The notes beneath the pieces were generated by a model that was given only the letters and a program-made list of their open reading frames with translations, was not told the DNA's origin and searched no databases. The position numbers and the translations under genes were made by a program. A DNA stretch of 64,000 nucleotides from Bacillota bacterium (lineage in GTDB: Bacteria; Bacillota; Clostridia; Christensenellales; CAG-138): NCBI GenBank assembly GCA_023395595.1, contig JAEWYO010000036.1, positions 1,852 to 65,851 on the forward strand, written 5' to 3'. Shown here one piece after another: positions 6,650 to 45,889 of this stretch (its first letter is position 1; each line of letters starts with the position of its first letter).

Positions 6650-7150
6650 ATGCAGATTTTCTTCTTGTCTACGCCCGTTACGATTCTCCTGTTTTTCGCA
6701 ATCTGGGGCATCGTGCCGCTGTTGCTGGCGTATCTGTGTCTGCAAATCCCCGACCGGTTCTTTGAACCCACGCGTTTTCTCTGGCGCACGCACGGCTTTG
6801 AGCAAAATGGCCGCCTCTATGAGAAAGTATTTCACATCCGCAGCTGGAAACATCTTTTGCCGGATGGCGGAGGCGTTTGGAAAAAACGCAGTTACAAAAA
6901 GAAAAATCTAACAGACTATTCGGAAGCAAATCTGCATCGGTTTTTGATCGAAACTTCGCGCGGGGAACTGGTGCATTGGCTCGGTATCCTGCCGTTTTGG
7001 GTATTTGGGCTGTTTGCGCCGCCAGCGGTGATCTGGATCATGCTGCTCTACGCGCTGGTGGTCAACGTTCCCTGCATCATCGCCCAGCGCTACAACCGCC
7101 CGCGCGTCTTTGCGCTCTACAGACGCTTGTACGCAAAGAAAGCAAGTTGA
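6650..7150 (+). CDS. crtO: Glycosyl-4,4'-diaponeurosporenoate acyltransferase-like protein (CrtO family)
   Basis: The 166-aa membrane protein aligns by eye with my memory of S. aureus CrtO: SWKHLLPDGG vs KWKHKILDGH, ETSRGELVHW vs ETKRAELIHW, and AQRYNRPRV vs VQRYNRPRL. Confidence 0.65.
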   Translation: MQIFFLSTPVTILLFFAIWGIVPLLLAYLCLQIPDRFFEPTRFLWRTHGFEQNGRLYEKVFHIRSWKHLLPDGGGVWKKRSYKKKNLTDYSEANLHRFLIETSRGELVHWLGILPFWVFGLFAPPAVIWIMLLYALVVNVPCIIAQRYNRPRVFALYRRLYAKKAS

Positions 7151-7166
7151 GCTTCTCGCGTGTAAT

Positions 7167-7194
7167 AAGCCCGCCGTTTGATTCCGGCGGGCTT
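7167..7194. terminator. Hairpin between convergent genes (bidirectional terminator candidate)
   Basis: AAGCCCGCCG-tttgattc-CGGCGGGCTT forms a perfect 10-bp stem followed by a T-rich tract. Confidence 0.6.
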
Positions 7195-7226
7195 TGTGCT
7201 GTTTACTTGTCTATCTTTGGGTTCGC

Positions 7227-8231
7227 TTAATCAATACTGCCCGTGTTGGCTAGTTCAAGAAACACCTCAACCCAGCCGGGGTCGAATTGCGTTCCCGCGT
7301 TTCGTTTGATTTCATCCACGCATTGTTCAAACGACAGCGCGTCGCGATACGGGCGGCAGGAGCGCATCGCGTCATATGTGTCCGCAATAGCGATCACCCG
7401 TGCGCCGTCGGGAATCTCCTCGCCACCCCGTCCGTCGGGATAACCCTTGCCGTCATATCGCTCGTGATGATGCCGGATAATCGGCCAGATGCGGCTGCCA
7501 GGATCGAGCGGGCGGATGATGTCCGCGGCCAGAGCGCTGTGCTGTTTGATGGATTCATATTCCTCGCTGGTGAGTTTACCCGGCTTTCGCACGATGGAAT
7601 CGGGGATGCAAATCTTCCCGATGTCGTGGAGCTTTGCCGCCCACTGTACATCCAGCAGTCGCTCGTTGATGCCGTTTCGCTCTTCATAGAGCTTGCAAGC
7701 AATTTCGCAAACCCGCTTGCTGTGTCCGTTTGTGTAGAGATCCCGCGCCTCCAGAAGGTTGGAAAGCATCTCCATGCTGGTCATCATCAGGCCGTGATAT
7801 TGTTCCTTGAGCGTGTCGTGTGCAATCTCCTGCGCGCGCTGATAGGCGGCCTTTGCCTCCTCCGCCTTCCTGCGCTCGGTGATGTCCCGCGAGGTGACAG
7901 TCACGCCCTGCAGCGTATGCGCCTCGTCAAACACAGGCGCATAGGTGTTTTCATAATATTTGTCGTTGACAGCATCCGTCACCATGCGGCTGATGGTGTT
8001 GCCTTCGTGCGTCTTGAGATAGCCGAGCGCGCGGTTGACCTTCTCTTTGGAGTCCTCCTTGTGGCAGTCCAGCATGCTGTGCCCAAGCAGGTTTTCGCGC
8101 TTCACATTCCGAATTCTCTCCGCCGCGTCGTTGACGAATACAATCGTACCCTGCGCATCCGAGAGGATGATGCCATCCTGCGTTTGCGACAAAACCAACC
8201 TGTATAGATTGTCCAGCCATTCGTGTTCCAT
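7227..8231 (-). CDS. PAS sensor domain / HD-GYP domain protein (putative c-di-GMP phosphodiesterase)
   Basis: GGAGG lies 7 nt upstream of the ATG. The N-terminal region is PAS-like (GIILSDAQGTIVFVNDAAERI). HD-GYP signatures are present (KLHDIGK; HHHERYDGKGYPDG). Confidence 0.85.
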   Translation of the reverse strand: MEHEWLDNLYRLVLSQTQDGIILSDAQGTIVFVNDAAERIRNVKRENLLGHSMLDCHKEDSKEKVNRALGYLKTHEGNTISRMVTDAVNDKYYENTYAPVFDEAHTLQGVTVTSRDITERRKAEEAKAAYQRAQEIAHDTLKEQYHGLMMTSMEMLSNLLEARDLYTNGHSKRVCEIACKLYEERNGINERLLDVQWAAKLHDIGKICIPDSIVRKPGKLTSEEYESIKQHSALAADIIRPLDPGSRIWPIIRHHHERYDGKGYPDGRGGEEIPDGARVIAIADTYDAMRSCRPYRDALSFEQCVDEIKRNAGTQFDPGWVEVFLELANTGSID

Positions 8232-8439
8232 ACATAGCCTCCGCCTATGGTGTAGCAGTAAGAAACATCGAGAAATGTTCAGAAATGCATGAAACGGCGC
8301 AAGAACCGTTACAAATACACTATAGTTTTATCGAATCACATTTGCAATAGAAAATGACATTTTCGTACAAAAACATCTTGTTTTGGTTTTTCTTGCACGC
8401 TACCACACATGATTTTTGTTTGTTGATTTTTGATTTGGC

Positions 8440-33994: not shown

Positions 33995-35053
33995 ATGCAA
34001 ACAAAAGACTATTCCATTACGCTGGACATGATGCGTACGCTGCCATTTCGCCCGTTTGAGGTGGTGGAAGGCGACACGGGTAACATTCTGCACGTCACGC
34101 TGCTCAACAACGGAGACGCGATGGATCTCTCCGGCTGCAATGTCCAGATCGCGTTTGCGTCCAGCAGCGGCTTTGCGATGCAGGACGAGACGAGCGGCAT
34201 CGTAAAAACAGCGGCAATCGGCACATTTGACGTAGCCCTGCTTCCAACCGCGTACGGCGCGGGCAATGTCAGCGCGGACGTACAAGTCTACAGCGGCGCA
34301 CGCAGCGAAACCCTCGTCACCAGCACGCGCTTCGACTTCCGCTGCCGCAAGTCCCTCATCAGCGGGGATATCATCCGCGCAAACTCCGCCTATCCCCCGC
34401 TGGTTGAGGCGGCGCGCATCGCAAACGAGGCAGCGGAAGCCGCGCTTGCCGCTGCCTCGCGCATCGGTACCGACATCGGCGAACTCAATGTGCAGGCAGA
34501 CTGGAACGAAGCAAACCCCGCGCAAGATGCGTTCATCCGCAACAAACCCGCAATCCCCTCTGCGCCCGCCGACGTTGGCGCAGCCCCCGCCAACCATGCG
34601 TCGCAGCACGGGCCAGGCGGCAGCGATCCTGTTCCCCCGATTCCACACGCGGCGCGGCACGCGAGCGGCGGCGCGGACGCGCTCAACCCGGGAGACATCG
34701 GCGCGGCGCGTCTCGTCGGCGGCGTGCTCGACGCCGAGCAGAGCGCAGTCATTGTGCAGGAGCAGACCGCAAGCTACACCGCAACCCCGGCCGACAACGG
34801 CAAGGATATCTGGCTCAACAGCGGTTCTGCCGTGACGCTGACGCTGCCACCGCAGGCAAGCGCCGCATTTCCGGCCAAGACGTTTTTCTTTGTCACGCAG
34901 ATGGGTAGCGGCGCGGTCACCCTCGCGGCCGGATCGGGTGTTACGCTCCGCTCAGCGGGCGGCAGGCTGAAACTTGCGGAGCAATACACCACCGTTCTTT
35001 TGCGAAAGCTGTCGGACAACGTTTGGCTCGTCACGGGGAATCTCAGCGTATGA
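33995..35053 (+). CDS. Phage tail-fibre / baseplate upper protein (BppU N-terminal domain)-like protein
   Basis: AGGAGG RBS. The N-terminus (ITLD...FEVVEGDTGNILHVTLLNNGDAMDLSG) resembles the BppU_N fold family. A tail-fibre-type motif QADWNEANPAQDAFIRNKP and repeated HxxxHGxGGxDP-like motifs are present. Confidence 0.7.
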   Translation: MQTKDYSITLDMMRTLPFRPFEVVEGDTGNILHVTLLNNGDAMDLSGCNVQIAFASSSGFAMQDETSGIVKTAAIGTFDVALLPTAYGAGNVSADVQVYSGARSETLVTSTRFDFRCRKSLISGDIIRANSAYPPLVEAARIANEAAEAALAAASRIGTDIGELNVQADWNEANPAQDAFIRNKPAIPSAPADVGAAPANHASQHGPGGSDPVPPIPHAARHASGGADALNPGDIGAARLVGGVLDAEQSAVIVQEQTASYTATPADNGKDIWLNSGSAVTLTLPPQASAAFPAKTFFFVTQMGSGAVTLAAGSGVTLRSAGGRLKLAEQYTTVLLRKLSDNVWLVTGNLSV

Positions 35054-35838
35054 GAGAGCTGATGATGGGCTGCGTTGCGGCGAGCATTGCCGGGTTTGGC
35101 CCGGCGGATTTCACCTTCACCGGCGCCTGCACCTGGATTCAAGACAGCTCCACCAACTGGCGGTTGAAGTTTCTCTCCAGCGGGATTTTCACGCCGAAAA
35201 AGTCGCTGGTGATCGATCTGTTTCTGGTTGGCGGCGGTGGCGGCGGCGGATCGACCGGCAACAGTATTGCAGCAGCTGGCGGAGGCGGCGGAAGAACTGG
35301 CCAATGGCCGAATGCTGCACTCGTTGCGGGTCAATCGTATGCCGTAACGATAGGTGCAGGCGGCGGAGCCAGCGCCAATGGCGGCACGACTAGCTTTATC
35401 GGCGGCGTTCACAACAGCGCTGTTGCTGGCGGAATGACCCCGAATCCACGTTATGTTGGTGGCTCCGGTGGTTCCGGAGGCGGCGGCGGTGGCGGAGGAA
35501 CAGGCGGTTCCAATGGTGCAAGTGGTTCTGGTGGCATTGATGGCGTTGGTGGTGCAGGGCAAGGCTACACAACCTATGAATTTGATCATACATCCTTCAC
35601 GCTCTATGCCGGAGGTGGCGGTGGTGGTGCCGAAGGCAATAGCTGGGACCCGAATTATGGCAACGGAGGCGCGGGCGGTGGTGCTCGTGGCGGCGACCAC
35701 TATGGCGGCACGGGCTGGTCTGCGGCTGCAAACACGGGAGGTGGCGGCGGCGGTGGCGGAGCCAAGGGTGATTCCGGAATTGGCGGTGCAGGTGGCTCCG
35801 GCGGCTCCGGCATTCTGGCCATCCGCAACCACAGATAA
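35050..35838 (+). CDS. Glycine-rich protein of the type found next to phage tail fibres
   Basis: ATGA overlap with the upstream stop. The beta-rich N-terminus (FTFTGACTWIQDSSTNWRLKFLSSGIF) is followed by long GGxGG tracts. Confidence 0.65.
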   Translation: MRELMMGCVAASIAGFGPADFTFTGACTWIQDSSTNWRLKFLSSGIFTPKKSLVIDLFLVGGGGGGGSTGNSIAAAGGGGGRTGQWPNAALVAGQSYAVTIGAGGGASANGGTTSFIGGVHNSAVAGGMTPNPRYVGGSGGSGGGGGGGGTGGSNGASGSGGIDGVGGAGQGYTTYEFDHTSFTLYAGGGGGGAEGNSWDPNYGNGGAGGGARGGDHYGGTGWSAAANTGGGGGGGGAKGDSGIGGAGGSGGSGILAIRNHR

Positions 35839-36182: not shown

Positions 36183-37574
36183 TTACTCCGCCTTCTCCTC
36201 TTCCTTCTTGCGTCCGATGGAGAGCAGAAGGTTGAGCAGAATGCCCGCGATGGCGGCGCCCGCGATGCAGGGAACCTGAATGCCGAAGAACGGGATCATA
36301 CCGCCGAACTTGTACTGTCCGCCGATGCCGATGATCATGATGACCGCGATCACGGCGATGTTGCGCGCGTCGAACATGTCGCACTTGCGATCGATCATGA
36401 TCGCGATACCCTGCGCGGCGATTGCGCCGAAGAGGAAGATTTCGATACCGCCAATGACAGCCTGCGGGATCGAGTAGATGACGTTCACAACCGGCGAGAA
36501 GAACGAGAGAATCATCGCGATGATCGCAGCCGCGATCAGAACCGCCGTGGAGAACACTTTCGTGATCGCCATGGTGCTGATGTTTTCGCCGTAGTTCGTG
36601 CCTGCCGGTCCGCCGAACAAGCTGGCGAGGATGTCGCCCAAACCGTCGCCAAAGAGGTTGGAGCCAAGACGATCGCCGATGTCATACGTTTTGCCGGTGC
36701 CCTTTTTCTTGGCAAGGTCATTGACGTAGATATCCAGCTGGAAGACATGCGCCGTGGATTCCGGAATGGTCGCGATAGCGATTGGCATAATCGCGGCGAG
36801 CGCAACCCAGTCCACTCTCGGCAGCGTGAAATGCGGAATTGCAATCACGCCCGAAATGATCTGCGTGCCTGCCATTGCGGCAGCGGGCAGTTCGCGGAAC
36901 ATGGATTCCTTGGTGATCAGCAGGACGATACCCGCCGTGATGCAGCCAACGATCGGGCCGAGCAGCAGCGGAATCTGTCCCAGGAAGCCCTTGAGATAGA
37001 CGGAGAAGAGAATGGTTGCAACGAGGGTCACGAGAGACACAACCCAAACCCAATCGGTTCCGGCGATTCCTGCCGCGCCCGCAACGGGAGCCGCATCGCC
37101 AAGGGCGTTTGCCGCCAGCGTGAGGCCGATGACCATCGCGATGGGGCCGGTGACCGTCGGGGGCAGAACCTTTTCAATCGACTTGCGGCCAAAGCGGCTG
37201 ACGATGATGCCGGCCACGATGGAGACAAGACCCGAAGCAATGATACCAAACTGCACACCGGAGATAGCGGAATCCGGCAGCACTTCGCCGAACGCCACGC
37301 CGCCCGTGAGACCGATGATGGCGGAGAGGTAGGAGAAGCTTGAACCATAGTAGAGCGGGATTTTGCGCTTTGTCACCAGAATGAAGCCGATGGTGGCAAA
37401 GCCGCTGGCGAAGATTGTCGTTGCCAGATGGAAACCGGTGAGCAATGCAACGAGGATCGTAGCCGGGAACATGACGATGATCTGCTGCAGGGCATAGAGG
37501 ATCAGTTTCCAAAATGGCGGTGTTTCGTCCGGTAGGTACCCTATGGTCTTTGGTTCTTTGGGTTCCTTTGACAT
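36183..37574 (-). CDS. Nucleobase:cation symporter-2 (NCS2) family permease (uracil/xanthine-type)
   Basis: AGGAGG RBS. The polytopic product carries LYALQQIIVMFPATILVALLTG and NCS2-like motifs (GDILASLFGGPAGTNYGENI). Confidence 0.9.
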   Translation of the reverse strand: MSKEPKEPKTIGYLPDETPPFWKLILYALQQIIVMFPATILVALLTGFHLATTIFASGFATIGFILVTKRKIPLYYGSSFSYLSAIIGLTGGVAFGEVLPDSAISGVQFGIIASGLVSIVAGIIVSRFGRKSIEKVLPPTVTGPIAMVIGLTLAANALGDAAPVAGAAGIAGTDWVWVVSLVTLVATILFSVYLKGFLGQIPLLLGPIVGCITAGIVLLITKESMFRELPAAAMAGTQIISGVIAIPHFTLPRVDWVALAAIMPIAIATIPESTAHVFQLDIYVNDLAKKKGTGKTYDIGDRLGSNLFGDGLGDILASLFGGPAGTNYGENISTMAITKVFSTAVLIAAAIIAMILSFFSPVVNVIYSIPQAVIGGIEIFLFGAIAAQGIAIMIDRKCDMFDARNIAVIAVIMIIGIGGQYKFGGMIPFFGIQVPCIAGAAIAGILLNLLLSIGRKKEEEKAE

Positions 37575-37967: not shown

Positions 37968-38010
37968 AAAAACAGAAACTGCGCGATTGCGGTGAAACTT
38001 GCAATCGCAG
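37968..38010 (-). terminator. Rho-independent terminator (or attenuator) inside the long intergenic gap
   Basis: On the minus strand, CTGCGATTGC-aagtttcacc-GCAATCGCGCAG is followed by TTTCTGTTTTT. Confidence 0.6.
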
Positions 38011-38345
38011 GTAGTTCACGGTGTTTATCAAGGTGCGTTTGTGCTGTTGGGCCCTGATTTTTTTATATGCGAACAATGAGCCGTTTGTTTCTTCTGGCTA
38101 TATTATATGATACAGCAGTCCGAATCAAGAACTTTTTTACGCAAATCTGTATTCGATTGTTGTGCAAGTCGCCAAAAATGAGTGAATTCGTGTCAGGTTG
38201 GTTTCGATGTGTTGTGGTTGAGCCAGTCGGTAGATGATGTGAAAACAGAAACCGTTGTGTCGGGATTGGTTGATTGGTTTCGGCCTGCCGGGAGCATATG
38301 GATGCCCCCGGCGAAGCCTGTTACGTTGAAATATGCGTTATCTGA

Positions 38346-39146
38346 TTATACACCCTCGAAACCGTCGAATGCAACGACGCGAGAGATGCAGCTTTCGCCG
38401 TCTTTGAGCTTCCACGGGAAGATGCCGATCACGCAGCGTTTGTTGGAAAGTTGCTCGATCTCGCCGCCGAGGCACTCGGCATGGATCGCCTCATACGGCT
38501 GGCAGAAGAGCTCGATGTGCATCGCCTGATAGTGATCCGGCCACGGATAGACTTCTTCAAGCGTCTTCCCGTATTTCTTTTGGAAAATCGCGTCGCACTT
38601 CTTGGCTTCCATGGGTTCCCATTCGCGAATCTTCGTGTTCATCGGGTGATCCGCGCTGCCGCAGTCCACACCGATCCAGCTGATCTTCTTGTCGCGCACC
38701 CACTGGATGAAGTCCAGCGACGGGCCGGGATGGCGGAGCATATAGCGCCGCTCATCGGCCTTTGGGCTGTCCCAACCGTAGATGTGGTAGCCGGTGTTGA
38801 TAATCAGCACGTCGCCTTCCTTGACGGTTACGCGCTTTTCAATGTCCTGCGGGGTGTAGATGCCGAAATCCTCCGCCTGATCGCTCAAATCGACCACCAC
38901 GCCGGGACGGCAAAGGCGGGTCAACTCCAGAGAGGCGATGTCGCGTCCCGCAGTGTCAAAATGCAGCGGGCCGTCGAGATGGGTGCCGACGTGGTTGCTG
39001 TGCGTCAGCAGCTGTCCGTTTGCGCCGTTTGGCGTGAGACGCTTGAAAAACTTCATCGTCAGCGGCTCATACGTCGGCCATGCGGGCGTGTTGATGCCAA
39101 TCGGAATCGTGAGGTCATACATCTTGATATCAGACCATTTGCTCAT
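38346..39146 (-). CDS. Cyclase family protein (kynurenine formamidase / isatin hydrolase-type metal-dependent hydrolase)
   Basis: AGGAGG RBS. The family signature HSNHVGTHLDGPLHF (HxGTHxDxPxH) is present. Confidence 0.85.
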   Translation of the reverse strand: MSKWSDIKMYDLTIPIGINTPAWPTYEPLTMKFFKRLTPNGANGQLLTHSNHVGTHLDGPLHFDTAGRDIASLELTRLCRPGVVVDLSDQAEDFGIYTPQDIEKRVTVKEGDVLIINTGYHIYGWDSPKADERRYMLRHPGPSLDFIQWVRDKKISWIGVDCGSADHPMNTKIREWEPMEAKKCDAIFQKKYGKTLEEVYPWPDHYQAMHIELFCQPYEAIHAECLGGEIEQLSNKRCVIGIFPWKLKDGESCISRVVAFDGFEGV

Positions 39147-39213
39147 TGTGTTTGCCTCCTAAACTTATTTTCGTGTATCTGTTCTCGTTTTCACAAACGA
39201 AGTTGTGCGTTTG

Positions 39214-40638
39214 TTATGCCCAGGCTTCCGCGCAAGCCGCCAATGCCTGCTTGAAGCAGTCCTCCGGCGGATAGACAATGCCCGCACCTACCTGCCCCAC
39301 GCCGGGGTTTTTGTGCGCAATGCCCGTGTTGATCACGGGGCGGATGCCGGTTTCAATGACTTTTCGGATATCGACCCCCGTCGGGCTGCCGCGAAAATCC
39401 AGCGCGGGAATCTTATACGAGCGTCCCTCACCCACCGTGATTTCATACATGCGGGTGGAATAGTGAATCGAATCGCTGACCTGCCCGCCGACGAACTGAA
39501 CGATTGCCGGAGCCGCCGCCATGCAAAATCCGCCGATGCCCGCCGTCTCCGTGATGCAGCTGTCCCCCAGATCGCGCGCCGCGTCCGCCTCGCTGTAGCC
39601 GGGGAAATACAGCCCCTTGACCATCTCCGCCTCTGCCGAGAACCAGCGTTCTTTGCCAAGCCCCGCGATGCGGATGCCGAAATCCGTGCCGTTGCGGCAC
39701 ATCGTCGCAACCACGGTGCAATACGGAATATCAAAGATCGGGTCGAGTGTGCATTTCATCGCTGGCATGGAGATGTTCAGGAACGTGTGGTTGTTGCCGT
39801 TGATGAAGTTGAACGCCGCGACTTTTTGCGCCAGCGGGCGCTCGCAATTCATGATCGCGGGCACGAGTTCGCGCAGCAGAAGCGAGGTTCCCGCCTCGTT
39901 ACGGTTGTGCGCCTCGTCCCCCATCTGAAGGAGCTTTGCGATGAGCACCTTCACATCGATTTCGCCCTTGATTGTCAGGGCGTCTTTCAGCACGGGATAG
40001 AGTTCCTGCTCCATCCAGTTCAGACGCGCGAGTACTTCATTGTCATATGCGCCAAAGCGCAGCACTTTGCCCAAGCCTTCGTTGATCGTGCAATACGCGC
40101 GGTTGCCGAAGGTTTTGTTCTCTAGAATCCAGACCGGCATACGATAGGTCACAACGCCCGCCATCGGGCCGACCGCATCGTGCATATGGCATGGATCAAA
40201 CGTGATCTTCCCGCTTGCGGCGAGTGCTTCCGCCTCGGTTGCGTCCTTGGCGAGTCCTTCGTAGATCAGCCCGCCAAGCACCGCGCCGCGCTGCGGTCCG
40301 CTCATCCGCGCCCAAGTCACCGGCGGCCCCGCGTGGAGGATCGTGTGTTTCGTCATGCCGGGGATGACTTCCCCCGCGATGCCTAAGCCTACAATCGTCG
40401 GCTGCGCGGTGAGGATGCGCTCCAGCGCCTCCTTGTTTGCCGCGTCAATCTTTGCCGCAAGCGCAGGCTGCTTGAGTTTGCGCAGGTTGGCTGCCGCCGC
40501 TTTGTCCCCGCCTGCGACGGGCTTCCAGTCCACATGCACCGCGTCTACCTTCTGGCTGACAAGATCGTCATAAAACGACTCGATGCCGAAGTTCACCACA
40601 TGCAATTTTTGTTCAAACAACGCATTCAATTTCGACAT
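39214..40638 (-). CDS. DUF1116 protein (YlbE-like)
   Basis: ATG 40638 lies 4 nt after the fdrA stop, with AGGAGGG embedded in the end of fdrA. The product begins MSKLNALFEQKLHVVNFGIESF, similar to YlbE-type proteins. The ORF-track extension to 40884 overlaps fdrA. Confidence 0.8.
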   Translation of the reverse strand: MSKLNALFEQKLHVVNFGIESFYDDLVSQKVDAVHVDWKPVAGGDKAAAANLRKLKQPALAAKIDAANKEALERILTAQPTIVGLGIAGEVIPGMTKHTILHAGPPVTWARMSGPQRGAVLGGLIYEGLAKDATEAEALAASGKITFDPCHMHDAVGPMAGVVTYRMPVWILENKTFGNRAYCTINEGLGKVLRFGAYDNEVLARLNWMEQELYPVLKDALTIKGEIDVKVLIAKLLQMGDEAHNRNEAGTSLLLRELVPAIMNCERPLAQKVAAFNFINGNNHTFLNISMPAMKCTLDPIFDIPYCTVVATMCRNGTDFGIRIAGLGKERWFSAEAEMVKGLYFPGYSEADAARDLGDSCITETAGIGGFCMAAAPAIVQFVGGQVSDSIHYSTRMYEITVGEGRSYKIPALDFRGSPTGVDIRKVIETGIRPVINTGIAHKNPGVGQVGAGIVYPPEDCFKQALAACAEAWA

Positions 40639-40639
40639 G

Positions 40640-42211
40640 TTATCCCTCCTGACGCAGGTTCGCGAGGATGCGGGAGACAAAGCGCGTTGCCTGCGCGTTG
40701 CTCGGCAGCACGACAGCGCCCGCGTCGGCAAGCTGCTGTTGGGTGCGGCTGAGGCTCTGCGGGTCGCCTTCCGTTCCGCAGACCGCGCAGACGCAGCAAA
40801 GGGATCTGCCCGCGCGCGCCGCTTCGTCCTTTGCCGTCCGAATTGCGGCGGCGAGGTCTTCCGCCGGGTTGGGATGCGAACCAAAGCCGATCACGCAGTC
40901 GGTCATGATCACGGCGCAGGACGGGTCTTTCGCGTCCGTGATCACGCGCTCGGCGCGCAGGCTCGGGTCGATCATCGGGTGCGGACGGCCGACGGTAAAC
41001 GCATCGTCCCCAAAGTCGAGGAAGGTGTGTTCGCGGCTTAGCCCGCCCTTCGGGTCTTCCAGTGCGTCCGCCGGATTGAGCGGAATGTTGCTATAGATGT
41101 GCCCGAGATTCGCAATCATGAGCTTCATCGCCTCGTCGCAGAGCGTGCCGCCGGTATAAAACCCGCGCACATAGCGCTGTCCTTTGACAAACTCGGATGC
41201 GATCCGCTTTGCCATCGCTTCCGCCTTTGCTTCGCCCATCGTGAATCCCGCATAGTCCACCGGCGTTTCGCCGCGGCTGAGCGCAACGGCTTTGTGCGCC
41301 GCGTCCTCCAGCGAGACAGCGGCAACCAGCCCAAAGGATTCAATCTCGCCTCGGTCTCCGCCGATGAAGCAGACCACCGTGGGTTTGCCCGTCTTGGCGG
41401 CAAGCGCAAGCATTTCACTCGCGATCTCTTTTGCCGGAGGCTTGCTGATGAGTGTGATGACCTTTGTCTTCGGGTCGTTTTTCAGCGCGTCCAGCCCCAG
41501 CTTCATCATCAGCCCGCCGATGTCCTTCTTGAGGTCGCGTCCGCCGGTACCAATCACCTGGCTCACGCCGGAACCCAGCTGGTCGATGATGCTCGAAACC
41601 TCCTGCGTGCCCGTGCCGCTGGCAGCGACGATGCCGATATCCCCGCTTCTCACCACGTTTGCAAACGCGAGCGGCACATGGTTGATGATTGCGGTACCGC
41701 AGTCCGGCCCCATCATCAAAAGCTCGTGTTCATAGGCGTAGGTCTTGAGCGCTTTTTCTTCTTCGATGGTCACGTTGTCCGAAAACAACATGACGTTGAT
41801 GCCGTTGTCGAGGCAGCTCTGTGCAACGTCCGCGGCATGCCTGCCGGGCACGGAGATGACCGCCATGTTCAGGTCGGGATCGATCTTGATTGCGCCATCC
41901 AGCGTCGGCGGCGCATAGGCAGCGGCTTTACTCTCCGCTTTTTTGTTCAGCAGTTCTTCCGTCTTGTTCAGCACAGCGGAAAACGCGCTTTCGCTTTCGC
42001 AAGAGACAGCGACGAAAAAATCGTTTGTGGAGACATTTGCGTCCAGTTCCGGCGTGGCAACACCGATGTTGTGCGCAATCTCCTTATTCAGATCCGACCC
42101 CATGCCAACCAGCGCCTCGTGTACGCCTTCAAGCTTTTTGAGCTCTTTTGAGATCAGCATCAGGGTAACGGAGTCATAGTATGCGTTTTTTTTGATTTGT
42201 AATTGTATCAT
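40640..42211 (-). CDS. fdrA: FdrA family protein (succinyl-CoA synthetase alpha-like, acyl-CoA synthetase-type)
   Basis: The product begins MIQLQIKKNAYYDSVTLMLIS. CoA-ligase-like motifs are present (GIVAASGTGTQE, GPDCGTAII). Confidence 0.85.
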   Translation of the reverse strand: MIQLQIKKNAYYDSVTLMLISKELKKLEGVHEALVGMGSDLNKEIAHNIGVATPELDANVSTNDFFVAVSCESESAFSAVLNKTEELLNKKAESKAAAYAPPTLDGAIKIDPDLNMAVISVPGRHAADVAQSCLDNGINVMLFSDNVTIEEEKALKTYAYEHELLMMGPDCGTAIINHVPLAFANVVRSGDIGIVAASGTGTQEVSSIIDQLGSGVSQVIGTGGRDLKKDIGGLMMKLGLDALKNDPKTKVITLISKPPAKEIASEMLALAAKTGKPTVVCFIGGDRGEIESFGLVAAVSLEDAAHKAVALSRGETPVDYAGFTMGEAKAEAMAKRIASEFVKGQRYVRGFYTGGTLCDEAMKLMIANLGHIYSNIPLNPADALEDPKGGLSREHTFLDFGDDAFTVGRPHPMIDPSLRAERVITDAKDPSCAVIMTDCVIGFGSHPNPAEDLAAAIRTAKDEAARAGRSLCCVCAVCGTEGDPQSLSRTQQQLADAGAVVLPSNAQATRFVSRILANLRQEG

Positions 42212-42227
42212 GATACACTCCTTCCGA

Positions 42228-43169
42228 TCAGACCGTGCATCTCGGAATCAACGTTGTTCGTTTGAAGTTCCAGCATGATCCTGTATGATCCTCTGCATTA
42301 TGCTGCCGCAGCGCGAACACCACCCCCGTGAGCATGTCCGCGCCGGACGTGGAGCCAATGTCGCGCACGCGCCGGATTGCCCCGCGCGTTTTTGCGTCAT
42401 CCCCTGTCGAAAAAGATGCGTCCAATAGATCCCATAGCGCGCTGTTCGCCAGCGCCTGCCCGCTCTGGAGCAAAAATGTTCCGCTGATGCGGTTGGTCTT
42501 CTCCGCTGCCGCCCGCGCCATCGCGTCGATTTTCGCCTGTGTTCCCGGTTCGTTCGCCGCACGAAGCAGCAGATGCAGGGTGAGGAAATACCCGCTGAGT
42601 AAATCGTCCGACGATGGAGTCAGCCCCATGCCGCAGCCCGCGCAGTCCCCCGCCGCCTCGGCGGCTTTGTCCCATTCTCCCGCCGAAACCATCATGAAAA
42701 AGCGGCTCAGTCTCGGCGCAAGAAAGCGCGTATAGGTGTTTTCCCCGCCGCCCGTGACGAGCGGGGCAAGGCTATTTTCCGCGTCCGCATCAACAAGAGA
42801 TTCCGTGATGGATTCTGCAAGTACATCTTTTGCCGCAGACACGTTGTGCAAAAGAATGGAATCCACACTCAGGTCAACCGGCTTTGCACAGCAGAGATCA
42901 ATTGTTACCCCAGCAGCGGGAATACGAAAACCCCCGTCCTGCAAATACGCCGCCATGCCCGCGCGGACACCCGTTTGGGCAAACGGGGCGTTCGTCCGCA
43001 CGAGCACGGCATATGGCGTTAGGGCCTTGTGTTCCGCAATCAGCCCGATCAGCCCATCGTGTCCCAGTTCCAGATTCACCGCGTGGTCAAACACGGAATG
43101 TACCGTGCCGACAAGCGGTTTTTCTTTTGAGAGGGACAGCAGACGCTGACAAGCGGCAATTGCGTGCAT
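42228..43169 (-). CDS. DUF2877 protein (YlbF-like)
   Basis: It lies 4 nt after the upstream stop, with a GGAG RBS. The N-terminus (VGTVHSVFDHAVNLELGHDGLIGL) resembles DUF2877 as I recall it. It occupies the position between the DUF35 gene and fdrA. Confidence 0.65.
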   Translation of the reverse strand: MHAIAACQRLLSLSKEKPLVGTVHSVFDHAVNLELGHDGLIGLIAEHKALTPYAVLVRTNAPFAQTGVRAGMAAYLQDGGFRIPAAGVTIDLCCAKPVDLSVDSILLHNVSAAKDVLAESITESLVDADAENSLAPLVTGGGENTYTRFLAPRLSRFFMMVSAGEWDKAAEAAGDCAGCGMGLTPSSDDLLSGYFLTLHLLLRAANEPGTQAKIDAMARAAAEKTNRISGTFLLQSGQALANSALWDLLDASFSTGDDAKTRGAIRRVRDIGSTSGADMLTGVVFALRQHNAEDHTGSCWNFKRTTLIPRCTV

Positions 43170-43173
43170 TGCG

Positions 43174-43542
43174 TTACTCCGGCTTTACAAACACGAAGCC
43201 GGTTTCTTCGCAGTCGATGCTTTCCTTATATAGGATACGGCGCGTGCGCACCACGCCGACGGTCGCGAGCAGCTCCATGCCGCTCTCGATTCCGTCGTCA
43301 AAGCCGATTTGTCCCGTTGCGCGCACACCGTTTTCAAACTCGACCACGCCGAAATGGAGCCACGGCTGCATATAGCCTTCGGGCAGGTTGTAGACCCGCG
43401 TCCATGTCAGCAGTTTGCATTTGCCGCCGAGCGGTTCTTCGGTGAACTCGCGGCCGTCGCAGTCCGGATTCTGGCACACGACGTAGCGGGGATGGTGCAG
43501 TTTTCCGCATTTGGTGCATTTGTAGGCGTACATCTGTTCCAT
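43174..43542 (-). CDS. Zn-ribbon / OB-fold protein (DUF35 family)
   Basis: GGAGGG RBS. The rubredoxin-like CTKCGK...CQNPDC is followed by an OB-fold segment (GKCKLLTWTRVY...). Confidence 0.8.
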   Translation of the reverse strand: MEQMYAYKCTKCGKLHHPRYVVCQNPDCDGREFTEEPLGGKCKLLTWTRVYNLPEGYMQPWLHFGVVEFENGVRATGQIGFDDGIESGMELLATVGVVRTRRILYKESIDCEETGFVFVKPE

Positions 43543-43556
43543 AATGATTCCCTCCT

Positions 43557-44753
43557 CTACTTCGTGGTCACAATCGTTGCCACGACGTTGTTGCCAAAGC
43601 CGCCGAAGTTCACGGCAAGCCCGGTCTTCGCGCCCTCGACCTGCCGCCCTTCCGCTTCCCCGCGGAGCTGACGCACGAGCTCGATGATCTGCGAAACACC
43701 GGTTGCGCCCAGCGGATGGCCTTTTGCCTTCAACCCGCCGGAGGTGTTGATCGGCAGTTTGCCGCCGATCTTCGTGTCCCCGTTGCGCGCGGCAATGTGC
43801 CCCTGTCCGCGCGGGAAGAGGCCGGTTTCCTCGCTCTCCTCGATTTCGAGGATCTGGAATGCGTCGTGCAGTTCGGCTACGTCGATGTCTTCGGGCTTCA
43901 TGCCCGCCATCTTGTAGGCCTTCTCGGCGCTGAGGCGAACGGCCAATAGGTCACTCGGATTTTCGCGGTTTGCAACCACGTGGGTGTCCGTTGCGGAGGC
44001 GATACCCGCAATCCGTACAAACGGTTTGCTGCCAAAGCCCAGCGCGTCCTGTTTGTCTTTTGCGACCAGCAGCACGGCAGCCGCGCCATCCGAAACGGGG
44101 CACATATCAAACTGCCGCAGCGGGTCGGCGACGATTGGATTTGTCGCGTTGATGTATGCGGGGTTTGTGATGCGCTCCAGCACCACCGGGCGCTGAATGT
44201 GCGCCACGGGGTTGTGGCAGGCGTTGTCGTGGTTCTTGACCGAGACGATGGAAAGATCTTTGCTCTCCACGCCGAAGCGATCCATGCAAAGCCGCGTAAA
44301 CATACCCGCAAACGACGGCAGCGTAAGGCCATATTTGTATTCTGCCGTGGGATGCAGCATGGTCGCGACAAAGTCGGTGCCTTCCCAGCCGGAGACCTCG
44401 CGCATTGCCTCGCCACCGATGACCAGAACGCAGTCGCACATGCCGGAGGCGATTGCCATCACGCCGAGTTTTACGGCGGAGGCGCCCGAAGCCGGCCCGT
44501 TTTCGATGGTCTCCGCCATCGCCGGACGGATATTGAGCGTGTCTACCACCGCGCTGGCGGCGCCCGAGACGCGGTTGACCATGCCCGCGCCCATGGAGGC
44601 GACAAACACCTGATCGATCACGTTCCTGCGCCCGGTCTTTGCGCCCGCGTCGTCCATGGCAAGCAGCGCCGCTTCACAGAGCATATCCAGAAACGAGCCG
44701 TTTGTTTTTCCGAATTTGGTATGGCCAACGCCAACGATTCCTACCTGTCTCAT
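43557..44753 (-). CDS. Thiolase-like (SCP-x / non-canonical thiolase) protein
   Basis: The product begins MRQVGIVGVGHTKFGK and shows the thiolase fold with C-terminal motifs (NTSGGLKAKGHPLGATG). It lies immediately upstream of its DUF35 partner. Confidence 0.85.
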   Translation of the reverse strand: MRQVGIVGVGHTKFGKTNGSFLDMLCEAALLAMDDAGAKTGRRNVIDQVFVASMGAGMVNRVSGAASAVVDTLNIRPAMAETIENGPASGASAVKLGVMAIASGMCDCVLVIGGEAMREVSGWEGTDFVATMLHPTAEYKYGLTLPSFAGMFTRLCMDRFGVESKDLSIVSVKNHDNACHNPVAHIQRPVVLERITNPAYINATNPIVADPLRQFDMCPVSDGAAAVLLVAKDKQDALGFGSKPFVRIAGIASATDTHVVANRENPSDLLAVRLSAEKAYKMAGMKPEDIDVAELHDAFQILEIEESEETGLFPRGQGHIAARNGDTKIGGKLPINTSGGLKAKGHPLGATGVSQIIELVRQLRGEAEGRQVEGAKTGLAVNFGGFGNNVVATIVTTK

Positions 44754-44825
44754 TGCCTTCTTCCTTTCTTCCTTCACGCAGCGCGGGCGCACTTCTTCCG
44801 CGCCCTGCGCAAACCTGCCGAAGCG

Positions 44826-45497
44826 TCAGACGCTGATCTTGGCGGGCATGTGCACCACTTTGTTTGCTTCAATGACATCTTCAAACGCCGGACGGATGCC
44901 GACATTCTTGTTCGCCTTGTGTTTTTCCCAGAGTGCGCGCGTGAGCACAAACGTCGGCACGCCGCCGAGTTCGTGCGGGCTTTGCGGACGGGATTCAAGC
45001 TCATATTCGATCATCCAGCGCTTAAAGCCGTTCGGGCTTTCCGCAACGATCCAAACTTCGTCTTGATTCATAAAGTCGAAGTGATATTCCATCTTGGCGG
45101 CAAAGAGCTGTGCGCCAACGCGCGCGCCGCGCTTGAGGGTCATGGTGTGATAGCTCATGCCGATCTTTTCGTTGACCATGCGGCCGTTGACGATGCCGGC
45201 GATTTCGCCATCGATTGCGCCGATGAGCAGATATTCATCCTGCACGCGATAGCGCAGCATACCAAGCAGCTCTGCCACGATGCGCGCGGAGACGATGTCG
45301 TAGAAATCCTTCTGGTGGTCGAGCAGCACCTTGATGCCGTCGATGACCATCTCGGTCTCTTCCCGCGTCGCGGTGCGTACCAGCATATCTTCGCCCGTGG
45401 TCAGCGGAATCACCTTCGCCTCGTAGGGTTTGAGCCCGATTGTCGGCGGACGCAGTTTGGCTTCCATTTCGTCAACGAGAATATCATACTTACCCAT
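44826..45497 (-). CDS. Hypothetical protein, first gene of the operon (possibly an acyl-CoA N-acyltransferase-like fold)
   Basis: ATG 45497 lies 8 nt after GGAGG. The 223-aa product is non-repetitive. I recognised no diagnostic motif. The fold suggestion is weak. Confidence 0.5.
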   Translation of the reverse strand: MGKYDILVDEMEAKLRPPTIGLKPYEAKVIPLTTGEDMLVRTATREETEMVIDGIKVLLDHQKDFYDIVSARIVAELLGMLRYRVQDEYLLIGAIDGEIAGIVNGRMVNEKIGMSYHTMTLKRGARVGAQLFAAKMEYHFDFMNQDEVWIVAESPNGFKRWMIEYELESRPQSPHELGGVPTFVLTRALWEKHKANKNVGIRPAFEDVIEANKVVHMPAKISV

Positions 45498-45889
45498 GAG
45501 ATTTGCCTCCTTCAATTTTGTAAAAGAAATGTGATAGAAAGGATGGGTGGGAATTACAAGTTCATTTTAGCGTCGTTATGAAGCCTTGTCCAGTATTTCT
45601 TGCAAATATATTGTTTTTCACGCCGTCCCTGCCTGGTTTGCCGCGTACTTCTGCAGTAGCGCTATAAAGCGTCCGTCATCTTGCAGGAAATGCTGTAATT
45701 TAACCGTTTTGTTGGGGATAATTGGCTCTGATGATCGTATTTTGTTCGGTAGTATTTCCGAATTACACGCCGAATTTCATCTTTTATAGTCGGTAAAGCG
45801 GGAAAACGCATGAAAAGAAGCGATGTTTTATGCAGCCTATACCGATATTTCCTGCACGTTTTTCGAAATGTGATTTTCTTTGCGGAAAA

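Follow-up and report, generated by a model that had tools for sequence, protein, structure and literature searches.

In Rhodococcus and other aerobes, the oxidative breakdown of pyrimidines proceeds via uracil dehydrogenase, barbiturase, and ureidomalonase. In Escherichia coli, purified AllF-AllG-AllH is an oxamic transcarbamylase that catalyzes the reaction oxalurate + inorganic phosphate = carbamoyl phosphate + oxamate and needs no coenzyme A (CoA) in the published assay (PMC11326118). We found relatives of these three subunits in a seven-gene operon at positions 38346–45497 of a 64,000-nucleotide stretch of DNA (in the following: the window) from a Bacillota bacterium (Christensenellales; CAG-138; GCA_023395595.1, contig JAEWYO010000036.1, positions 1,852–65,851, forward strand). 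Here, the AllFGH genes are embedded with genes for a cyclase-family protein, a predicted GNAT-fold protein, and a thiolase-like/DUF35 pair, and we consider it very probable that the operon is catabolic, acts on an acylurea derived from an N-heterocycle, and yields carbamoyl phosphate.

The operon consists of seven collinear open reading frames (ORFs), all on the minus strand, which encode in the direction of transcription the GNAT-fold protein (gene 1), the thiolase-fold protein (gene 2), the DUF35 protein (gene 3), the AllH-, AllF-, and AllG-like subunits (genes 4–6), and the cyclase-family protein (gene 7). The families of the seven proteins were assigned by Pfam and NCBIfam profile searches; together with the coordinates, these agree with the gene order, strand, and families that an initial annotation of the stretch had proposed. 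That annotation had also given intergenic gaps of 4 to about 70 nucleotides: The gaps are indeed short (72, 14, 4, 16, 1, and 67 nucleotides in the order from gene 1 to gene 7), the minimum being 1 nucleotide rather than 4. The GGAGG-type ribosome-binding sites it had noted, some of them embedded in the preceding gene, are found before all seven genes, with those of AllH and AllG lying inside the preceding gene. Likewise, the NCS2 permease it had placed further downstream is present at 36183–37574 (minus strand), 771 nucleotides beyond the operon. Finally, it had recorded neither a carbamate kinase nor a regulator. The former statement stands, as no carbamate kinase homologue is found anywhere in the 64 kb, and neither is a homologue of a molybdenum (Mo) hydroxylase; the latter holds for the 5 kb upstream of gene 1 and for the region between operon and permease, where no regulator gene is found, while Rex-type and AraC-type regulator genes lie approximately 6–8 kb beyond the cyclase gene.

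All three AllFGH subunit families are represented by adjacent genes. The AllH-like subunit (gene 4, DUF2877; 42228–43169, 313 residues) matches PF11392 (E=1.4e-20), shares approximately 32% identity with E. coli YlbF over 110 residues, and is the least conserved protein of the operon (31–64% identity among orthologues). The AllF/FdrA-like subunit (gene 5; 40640–42211, 523 residues) scores 477.6 bits on the NCBIfam FdrA subfamily model (cut-off 433), is 38% identical to E. coli FdrA, and comprises the domains HMA_AllF_N, CoA_binding, and Ligase_CoA. The AllG-like subunit (gene 6, DUF1116; 39214–40638, 474 residues) matches PF06545 (E=1.2e-92) and is 45% identical to E. coli YlbE. Pfam now uses the names AllG and AllH for DUF1116 and DUF2877, and the view that the step performed by the E. 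coli trio is merely proposed, which was taken in the initial annotation, has been overtaken by the activity of the purified AllF-AllG-AllH (PMC11326118). The genes are adjacent and co-oriented as in E. coli, and a carbamate kinase is linked to them in some relatives. The two systems differ in gene order, which is allH-allF-allG here and allF-allG-allH-allK in E. coli, in the absence of allBCDE and allK neighbours from the window, and in the position of the boundary between AllF and AllG: The N-terminal approximately 55 residues of the AllG in the window (40474–40638) correspond to the C-terminal tail of FdrA (model positions 506–554; 8190–8348 of the E. coli locus, L085). Therefore, the AllF/AllG subunit boundary is shifted between lineages, and such a moved boundary would fit a physical complex of the two subunits.

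The substrate of AllFGH in the window probably differs from that of the E. coli enzyme and is another acylurea. It is rather unlikely, in our judgement, that AllH-AllF-AllG is instead a true oxamate carbamoyltransferase whose oxalurate stems from the breakdown of purine, urate, or allantoin, with the cyclase-family protein opening, for example, parabanate or a related imidazolidine and with the GNAT-fold, thiolase-like, and DUF35 proteins handling oxamate or an upstream intermediate. Oxalurate cleavage is the sole demonstrated AllFGH activity (PMC11326118), and the allFGHK genes of nitrifiers have been interpreted as serving oxalurate degradation (PMC12625717). However, no allB-, allC-, allD-, or allE-type gene is found in the window or at any inspected locus, and the two-carbon oxamate leaves no obvious role for the thiolase-fold/CoA module or for the (methyl)malonyl-CoA decarboxylase genes that occur at related loci.

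The coherence of the operon becomes apparent from its conservation. In a scan with one genome per species, relatives of gene 1 were found in 393 species-level genomes; the best 80 loci were compared, 61 of which have enough contig downstream. Among these 61, the seven genes occur in identical order at 52 loci, so that the cross-genome comparison confirms the combination as conserved. In the nine exceptions, AllH has diverged beyond the reach of tblastn (L078, L079, L083) or is missing (L063, L065), the contig begins within the cluster (L081), or the genes are rearranged: L073 and L075 carry AllH-AllF-AllG-cyclase and GNAT-thiolase-like-DUF35 as two divergent units, and in L082 AllF-AllG-cyclase is followed by the GNAT-thiolase-like-DUF35 trio. 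From these rearrangements it follows that the operon is composed of two modules. The nearest relatives of the window operon belong to metagenome-assembled genomes (MAGs) of uncultured Clostridia and Christensenellaceae, and more distant carriers include species of Flavonifractor, Lawsonibacter, Pelethousia, Anaerocolumna, Herbinix, Acetivibrio, and Clostridium. Cultured carriers are Flavonifractor plautii, Lawsonibacter hominis NSJ-51, Anaerocolumna aminovalerica DSM 1283, Clostridium rhizosphaerae, and C. lamae. One of the carriers is a Flavonifractor that is very common in the human gut, and its version of the gene 1 protein is indexed in 1616 assembly-collection blocks. The gene combination is thus far beyond chance, which supports the seven genes as one conserved functional unit. 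In the two Pelethousia loci without AllH in its usual place, approximately 130 nucleotides lie between DUF35 and AllF (L063, 4742–4873; L065, 4289–4420); AllH is either encoded elsewhere or dispensable there.

The neighbourhood of the cluster in relatives points to N-heterocycle catabolism. In Flavonifractor, a divergent PucR-type regulator is followed by the seven genes, a small unannotated protein, and the three subunits of a Mo hydroxylase of the xanthine dehydrogenase (XDH) family. At 39 of 84 loci examined, such a three-subunit hydroxylase is encoded after the cluster; its subunits score best on xanthine dehydrogenase (XdhABC) models and stay below every named-enzyme equivalog cut-off. 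Further recurrent neighbours are a second NCS2 permease, a MocA-ModE fusion, and divergently placed CdaR/PucR regulators. A cytosine-deaminase-like amidohydrolase is encoded in L050, L056, and L073, and a carbamate kinase adjoins the cluster in L003 and L081, with partial copies in L063 and L064. With respect to the initial expectation of an imported N-heterocycle that is hydrolyzed anaerobically, activated in a CoA- or phosphate-dependent manner, and cleaved thiolytically or by a retro-Claisen reaction, the Mo hydroxylase, permeases, PucR regulators, and kinase of the relatives speak for import, ring or amide hydrolysis, and a phosphate-dependent step; the thiolytic step is not supported, as detailed below. 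The preference of the hydroxylase for XdhABC models and the presence of PucR-type regulators would also suit oxalurate formed from purines. Two observations concern the surroundings of the hydroxylase. A protein of 181–192 residues (u181/u192) is encoded between the cyclase and the Mo hydroxylase or second permease at approximately 30–40 loci (for example L034, 17216–17761; L001, 17028–17606) and is absent from the window; it has no Pfam or NCBIfam match and, judged by eye, an apparently hydrophobic N-terminal segment. Moreover, the Flavonifractor locus L001 contains, beyond the PucR gene, genes of the Se_S_carrier (PF11823) and Aminotran_5 families, the latter cysteine desulfurase/selenocysteine lyase-like (6753–8125), a hint at a possible selenium dependence of the Mo hydroxylase linked there.

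We also surveyed distant relatives of gene 1 with 33–48% identity. A Nitrososphaerales archaeon (L086) combines Mo-cofactor genes, a Mo hydroxylase, the GNAT-fold protein, AllF/G/H, a Bmp-type nucleoside ABC transporter, and an amidohydrolase, and no cyclase, thiolase-like, or DUF35 gene is present at this locus. A deltaproteobacterium (L088) carries the C-terminal part of a Mo hydroxylase, AllH-F-G, the cyclase, and the GNAT-fold protein; L089 carries AllH-F-G, cyclase, GNAT-fold protein, and Mo hydroxylase; and the archaeal locus L092 encodes cyclase, AllF, AllG, AllH, XdhC, a MocA-like protein, and the GNAT-fold protein. In a further archaeon (L091), a cytosine-deaminase-like amidohydrolase with 57% identity to the one of Pelethousia is encoded beside the GNAT-fold protein, followed by a Mo hydroxylase, a full biotin-dependent Na+-decarboxylase set, and AllG. 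The set, located between the Mo hydroxylase and AllG, consists of BioY, biotin ligase (BPL), a biotinyl carrier bearing the motif MKM, the pump subunit OAD_beta, and a carboxyltransferase of the MmdA type (799 bits). In L093, the GNAT-thiolase-like-DUF35 trio adjoins an MmdA-type gene at a locus that has no AllFGH, and in L090 the GNAT-fold protein adjoins both subunits of a CoA-transferase. On the basis of these distant loci, the wide core of the system consists of Mo hydroxylase, AllFGH, a ring or amide hydrolase, and the GNAT-fold protein. The part concerned with CoA esters and decarboxylation varies: It is the thiolase-like/DUF35 pair in Clostridia and a biotin-dependent decarboxylase or a CoA-transferase elsewhere. 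An indolepyruvate:ferredoxin oxidoreductase and an ADP-forming acyl-CoA synthetase, encoded next to the GNAT-fold protein in L092, were judged to be probably unrelated, because their scores exceed or approach the equivalog cut-offs of enzymes of aromatic amino-acid fermentation. Separately, an orphan OAD_beta gene stands beside the CdaR-type regulator of the cluster in three Bacillota MAGs (L079, 7263–8399; L080; L083, 5839–6975); a tblastn search with the MmdA-type gene of L091 found no carboxyltransferase homologue at these three loci, a biotin carrier not having been specifically sought.

The permease provides information on the imported compound. In the NCS2 family, a Glu at the first position of the NAT signature is found in uracil-type and a Gln in xanthine/urate-type transporters. 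The permease in the window has the signature YGENISTMAITK, sharing the Glu of UraA where XanQ has Gln. Among the NCBIfam models, it scores highest on uracil permease (240 bits, compared with 126 bits for pbuX), and its identity amounts to 34% with UraA and 24% with XanQ. Many relatives have an NCS2 permease of the window's or of a second type after the cluster, and for both linked types the highest scores come from the uracil permease and RutG models; both show the UraA-type Glu signature. This uracil-type character, as opposed to a xanthine/urate type, is a further argument against oxalurate as the substrate. The pathway for clostridial xanthine breakdown reportedly employs four hydrolases and a prenyl-flavin mononucleotide decarboxylase; no UbiD-type decarboxylase is among the Pfam families of the seven proteins. 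Its ('xanthinase') gene cluster was identified by Tong et al. 2023, as stated in a passage of PMC12507026. Because the classical clostridial xanthine route of ring opening, ureido removal, and decarboxylation is, according to that passage, assigned to a different gene cluster, we set it aside as the function of the operon, and the same assignment also tells against the purine-fed oxalurate alternative.

Gene 7 (38346–39146, 266 residues) encodes a clear member of the cyclase family (PF04199, E=5e-35, 121 bits compared with a cut-off of 23.1 bits) with the metal motif HVGTHLDGPLH from residue 52 and 79–99% identity among orthologues. Enzymes of this family are metal-dependent amidohydrolases. 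Among solved structures, kynurenine formamidases and isatin hydrolase come closest to gene 7 and have the PF04199 domain and the HxGTHxDxPxH motif in common with it; the similarity is only remote (E 4e-9 to 1e-4), and on the arylformamidase model the protein reaches 49.9 bits compared with a cut-off of 223.

The product of gene 2 (43557–44753, 398 residues) has the domains Thiolase_N and Thiolase_C_1 (Pfam; Thiolase_C_1 E=2.2e-43) and is of the archaeal/SCP2 type. Its nearest entries in the PDB are 7yvy (E=1.6e-76), 4yzo, and 6esq, and its closest kin are acetoacetyl-CoA thiolases of the archaeal type, among them the member of the thiolase/HMGCS/DUF35 complex. Pro87 (ENGPASG) aligns with the nucleophilic Cys (xxxCxSG) of 7yvy, 6esq, and 6hsj, the acid/base loop reads HDAF in place of HDCF, and the histidine of the GHP motif (His346) is retained. 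These three features are invariant in 41 of 41 orthologues and hold also in the distant, separate copy in L093. The protein thus keeps its oxyanion-hole histidines without the catalytic cysteines, which would suit a malonyl-type CoA intermediate. The HDAF loop alone is not decisive, because 7yvy likewise has HDAF. Since both catalytic cysteines are absent from all 41 orthologues, a true thiolase is ruled out, and an aldolase of the Ltp2/Sal type is ruled out by the absence of the catalytic Tyr from the HDAF loop. The thiolytic or retro-Claisen cleavage inferred in the initial annotation is consequently not supported. Gene 3 (43174–43542, 122 residues), which in the compared loci always directly follows the thiolase-like gene, encodes a DUF35 protein of the zinc-ribbon plus OB-fold type, with a four-Cys ribbon (C9, C12, C23, C28), sub-threshold Pfam matches to zf-ChsH2 and OB_ChsH2_C (20.5 and 17.8 bits), and a match to BbsA (E=5.6e-8). 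DUF35 proteins scaffold thiolase-fold enzymes, and the product of gene 3 is likely to be the scaffold partner of gene 2.

Thiolase-fold proteins that lack the nucleophilic Cys have been described elsewhere: Ltp2 and Sal are cysteine-less, DUF35-bound, SCP2-thiolase-like aldolases in which the Tyr of a YD(H/C)(F/Y) motif is catalytic, and cysteine-less members of the fold can retain the oxyanion hole, the trypanosomal SLP being a weak malonyl-CoA decarboxylase (PMC12329534). Gene 2 resembles all of these in having the thiolase fold without the nucleophilic Cys, and Ltp2 and Sal also in the DUF35 partner, but differs in its HDAF sequence, which replaces YDHF, YDCY, or YDCF, so that the aldolase Tyr is missing. 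With the thiolase/HMGCS/DUF35 and PhlABC complexes, the operon shares the arrangement of an archaeal-type thiolase-fold gene beside DUF35 and a third CoA-related partner; this partner is GNAT-fold here, not HMGCS or PhlA, and both catalytic cysteines are absent here. Such complexes raise the question whether the cluster might be anabolic, with FdrA as an acyl-CoA synthetase and the thiolase-like, DUF35, and GNAT-fold proteins forming a C–C or C–N bond as in PhlABC or thiolase/HMGCS/DUF35. FdrA does have CoA_binding and Ligase_CoA domains, and passages of PMC12960953 and PMC6392133 describe thiolase/DUF35 complexes that work in biosynthesis. Without a nucleophilic Cys, however, gene 2 cannot perform a Claisen condensation via an acyl-enzyme; the neighbours (Mo hydroxylase, permeases, carbamate kinase) are catabolic, and AllFGH needs no CoA in the published assay (PMC11326118). 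We therefore regard an anabolic function as highly improbable.

The product of gene 1 (44826–45497, 223 residues) has no Pfam or NCBIfam match, and in this respect its initial designation as an unknown protein persists; its fold can now be assigned. An AlphaFold2 model with a predicted local distance difference test (pLDDT) score of 87.6 gave 280 Foldseek matches in the PDB at E≤1e-3, of which the top 50 are all GNATs, with the top matches at E of approximately 1e-6 and TM-scores of only approximately 0.5. Homologues number 2352 at 90% clustering, and only 146 matches were found among 1.84 billion representatives at 50% identity. According to the model, gene 1 has a GNAT fold; by sequence, its family is isolated and very small. 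The canonical GNAT acyl-CoA motif is R/Q-x-x-G-x-G/A; gene 1 has a degenerate motif-A-like stretch, R123-G-A-R-V-G128, of which only the R and the last G are conserved family-wide. S115, H117, E153, S154, and H175-ELGG are invariant from Clostridia to archaea, a pattern that suggests an enzyme rather than a scaffold. Across phyla, gene 1 accompanies AllFGH more faithfully than the thiolase-like/DUF35 pair does.

Taken together, these data allow a specific pathway to be proposed, which we consider plausible but hold tentatively: Uracil or thymine would be converted via (methyl)barbiturate to ureidomalonate, which would yield carbamoyl phosphate and malonamate, and subsequently a CoA thioester and CO2. 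The base would be imported by the uracil-type NCS2 permease, whose association with the cluster is observed and whose specificity is predicted. The XDH-family Mo hydroxylase, which adjoins the cluster in many genomes though not in the window, may then oxidize uracil or thymine at C6 to barbiturate or 5-methylbarbiturate, and the cyclase-family metal hydrolase, or the amidohydrolase in archaea, may open the ring to ureidomalonate. Ureidomalonate is oxalurate extended by one CH2. In the next step, AllH-AllF-AllG, an established family here presumed to act on a new substrate, would phosphorolyze ureidomalonate to carbamoyl phosphate and malonamate, and a carbamate kinase encoded elsewhere would make ATP from carbamoyl phosphate. 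In the weakest step of the scheme, the GNAT-fold protein and the cysteine-less thiolase-fold protein on its DUF35 partner would convert the C3 amide to (methyl)malonyl-CoA and further to acetyl- or propionyl-CoA and CO2, with no thiolysis involved. This chemistry from amide to CoA thioester is not known for the GNAT or the thiolase fold. The proposed scheme assigns a function to each gene, and the linked permeases of the uracil type, the gene resembling cytosine deaminase, and the genes for (methyl)malonyl-CoA decarboxylase all find an explanation in it. In its most novel form, it would amount to an energy-conserving anaerobic 'oxidative' pyrimidine route, widespread in gut and environmental Clostridia and present in Nitrososphaerota, with water-dependent hydroxylation of uracil or thymine by the Mo enzyme, with an AllFGH paralogue as 'ureidomalonate phosphorylase' and with the GNAT-fold protein and the cysteine-less thiolase-fold/DUF35 pair making the CoA thioester; this reading we regard as doubtful.

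Compared with the aerobic oxidative pyrimidine pathway, the proposed intermediates from uracil via barbiturate to ureidomalonate and the malonyl-type C3 product are alike, whereas ring opening would fall to a member of the cyclase family, carbamoyl phosphate (which yields ATP) rather than urea would be formed from the ureido group, and the hosts are anaerobic. No match to a barbiturase/cyanuric-acid-hydrolase, ureidomalonase, or non-cyclase amidase family was found in the seven proteins by Pfam and NCBIfam.

Several points weigh against the pyrimidine pathway. Neither a Mo hydroxylase nor a carbamate kinase adjoins the cluster in the window or in many of its close relatives. Where the hydroxylase is linked, the best scores of its subunits, as described, are on xanthine dehydrogenase models, and PucR regulators are classically tied to purines. 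The permease, having its own promoter-like site and leader, could be an ordinary uracil-salvage transporter. By our estimate, the conversion of the amide to a thioester is uphill by approximately 20 kJ/mol, which leaves little energy for a Na+-pumping decarboxylase, and the role given to the GNAT-fold protein may consequently be wrong. Furthermore, the links to a decarboxylase and to a CoA-transferase each come from only one to three lineages, and the co-occurrence of thiolase-like/DUF35 and an MmdA-type gene in L093 makes it less likely that the thiolase-like protein itself carries out the decarboxylation. Our full-text searches also found no literature linking the cluster to any substrate.

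We also considered that the same logic of ring hydrolysis, AllFGH-type phosphorolysis of an acylurea, and CoA-dependent handling of the remainder might serve another N-heterocycle, such as a different hydroxylated pyrimidine, pyridine, or imidazole, or a dietary or xenobiotic ureide. All context evidence for an N-heterocycle applies equally to such compounds, as none of it fixes the substrate, and the Mo hydroxylase, cyclase-family, and GNAT-fold proteins are below every equivalog cut-off or have no family match. Pyrimidines and a malonyl fragment are favoured specifically, on the other hand, by the permease signature of the uracil type, by the gene resembling cytosine deaminase, and by the decarboxylase genes for (methyl)malonyl-CoA, and on balance we rate another N-heterocycle as unlikely, if deserving of serious attention.

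Returning to the pyrimidine pathway, its components belong to known superfamilies and the proposed intermediates would be those of the known oxidative route, handled by enzymes non-homologous to the ones of that route. The GNAT-fold family and the Pro87 thiolase-fold/DUF35 pair are without a characterized counterpart. No paper describing the seven-gene cluster was found in the searchable full-text literature, in line with the original impression that the combination is absent from characterized pathways. If the proposal is true, it would constitute a third anaerobic route of nucleobase breakdown in the gut beside the reductive pyrimidine and the recently solved uric-acid pathways, extend the AllFGH enzyme class beyond oxalurate, and give a function to the orphan GNAT-fold family and the cysteine-less thiolase/DUF35 pair. 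As the operon is carried by anaerobes including common human gut bacteria, it may be relevant to how microbes process pyrimidine drugs and to nitrogen cross-feeding, the latter possibly including ammonia-oxidizing archaea that have the core of GNAT-fold protein, AllFGH, and Mo hydroxylase.

The signals flanking the operon are compatible with a single transcript. A promoter-like site 5′ of gene 1 (TGGACA, 17-nucleotide spacer, TAAAAT; 45564–45592, minus strand) matches the consensus at 10 of 12 positions and is a putative promoter on the strength of this match. Approximately 30 nucleotides past the stop codon of the cyclase gene, a strong hairpin (38282–38318, minus strand) has a folding energy of −29.4 kcal/mol (z = −4.97), with none of 200 shuffled sequences being equally stable; a U-tract is absent after it. 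At the corresponding position, relatives have a G+C-rich segment that appears self-complementary when the alignment is read by eye. We regard the hairpin as the probable transcript end, acting as a putative terminator. Within the operon, terminator-like matches are rarer than expected from shuffled sequence (9 observed, 13.6 expected).

The permease has a leader of its own. A promoter-like site (TTGATT, 17-nucleotide spacer, TATAAT; 38102–38128, minus strand) lies in a block conserved in six relatives, and a hairpin with a U-run (37968–38010, minus strand), likewise conserved in the six relatives, is predicted by folding approximately 400 nucleotides before the start codon. The leader could be an attenuator or a riboswitch-like element. 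An Rfam search of the leader at E≤5 gave no match, and neither did Rfam over the whole window at the gathering threshold.

Two minor observations concern the window itself. Antisense ORFs of up to 533 residues run across the operon (for example 43980–45581, plus strand); they are artefacts of the high G+C content and misled naive ORF picking at several loci. Just beyond the permease (33995–35838, plus strand), two proteins are encoded, one of the BppU_N (phage tail-fibre-like) family and one rich in glycine; the region is not obviously part of a prophage, and the glycine-rich protein keeps its position in 14 related loci.

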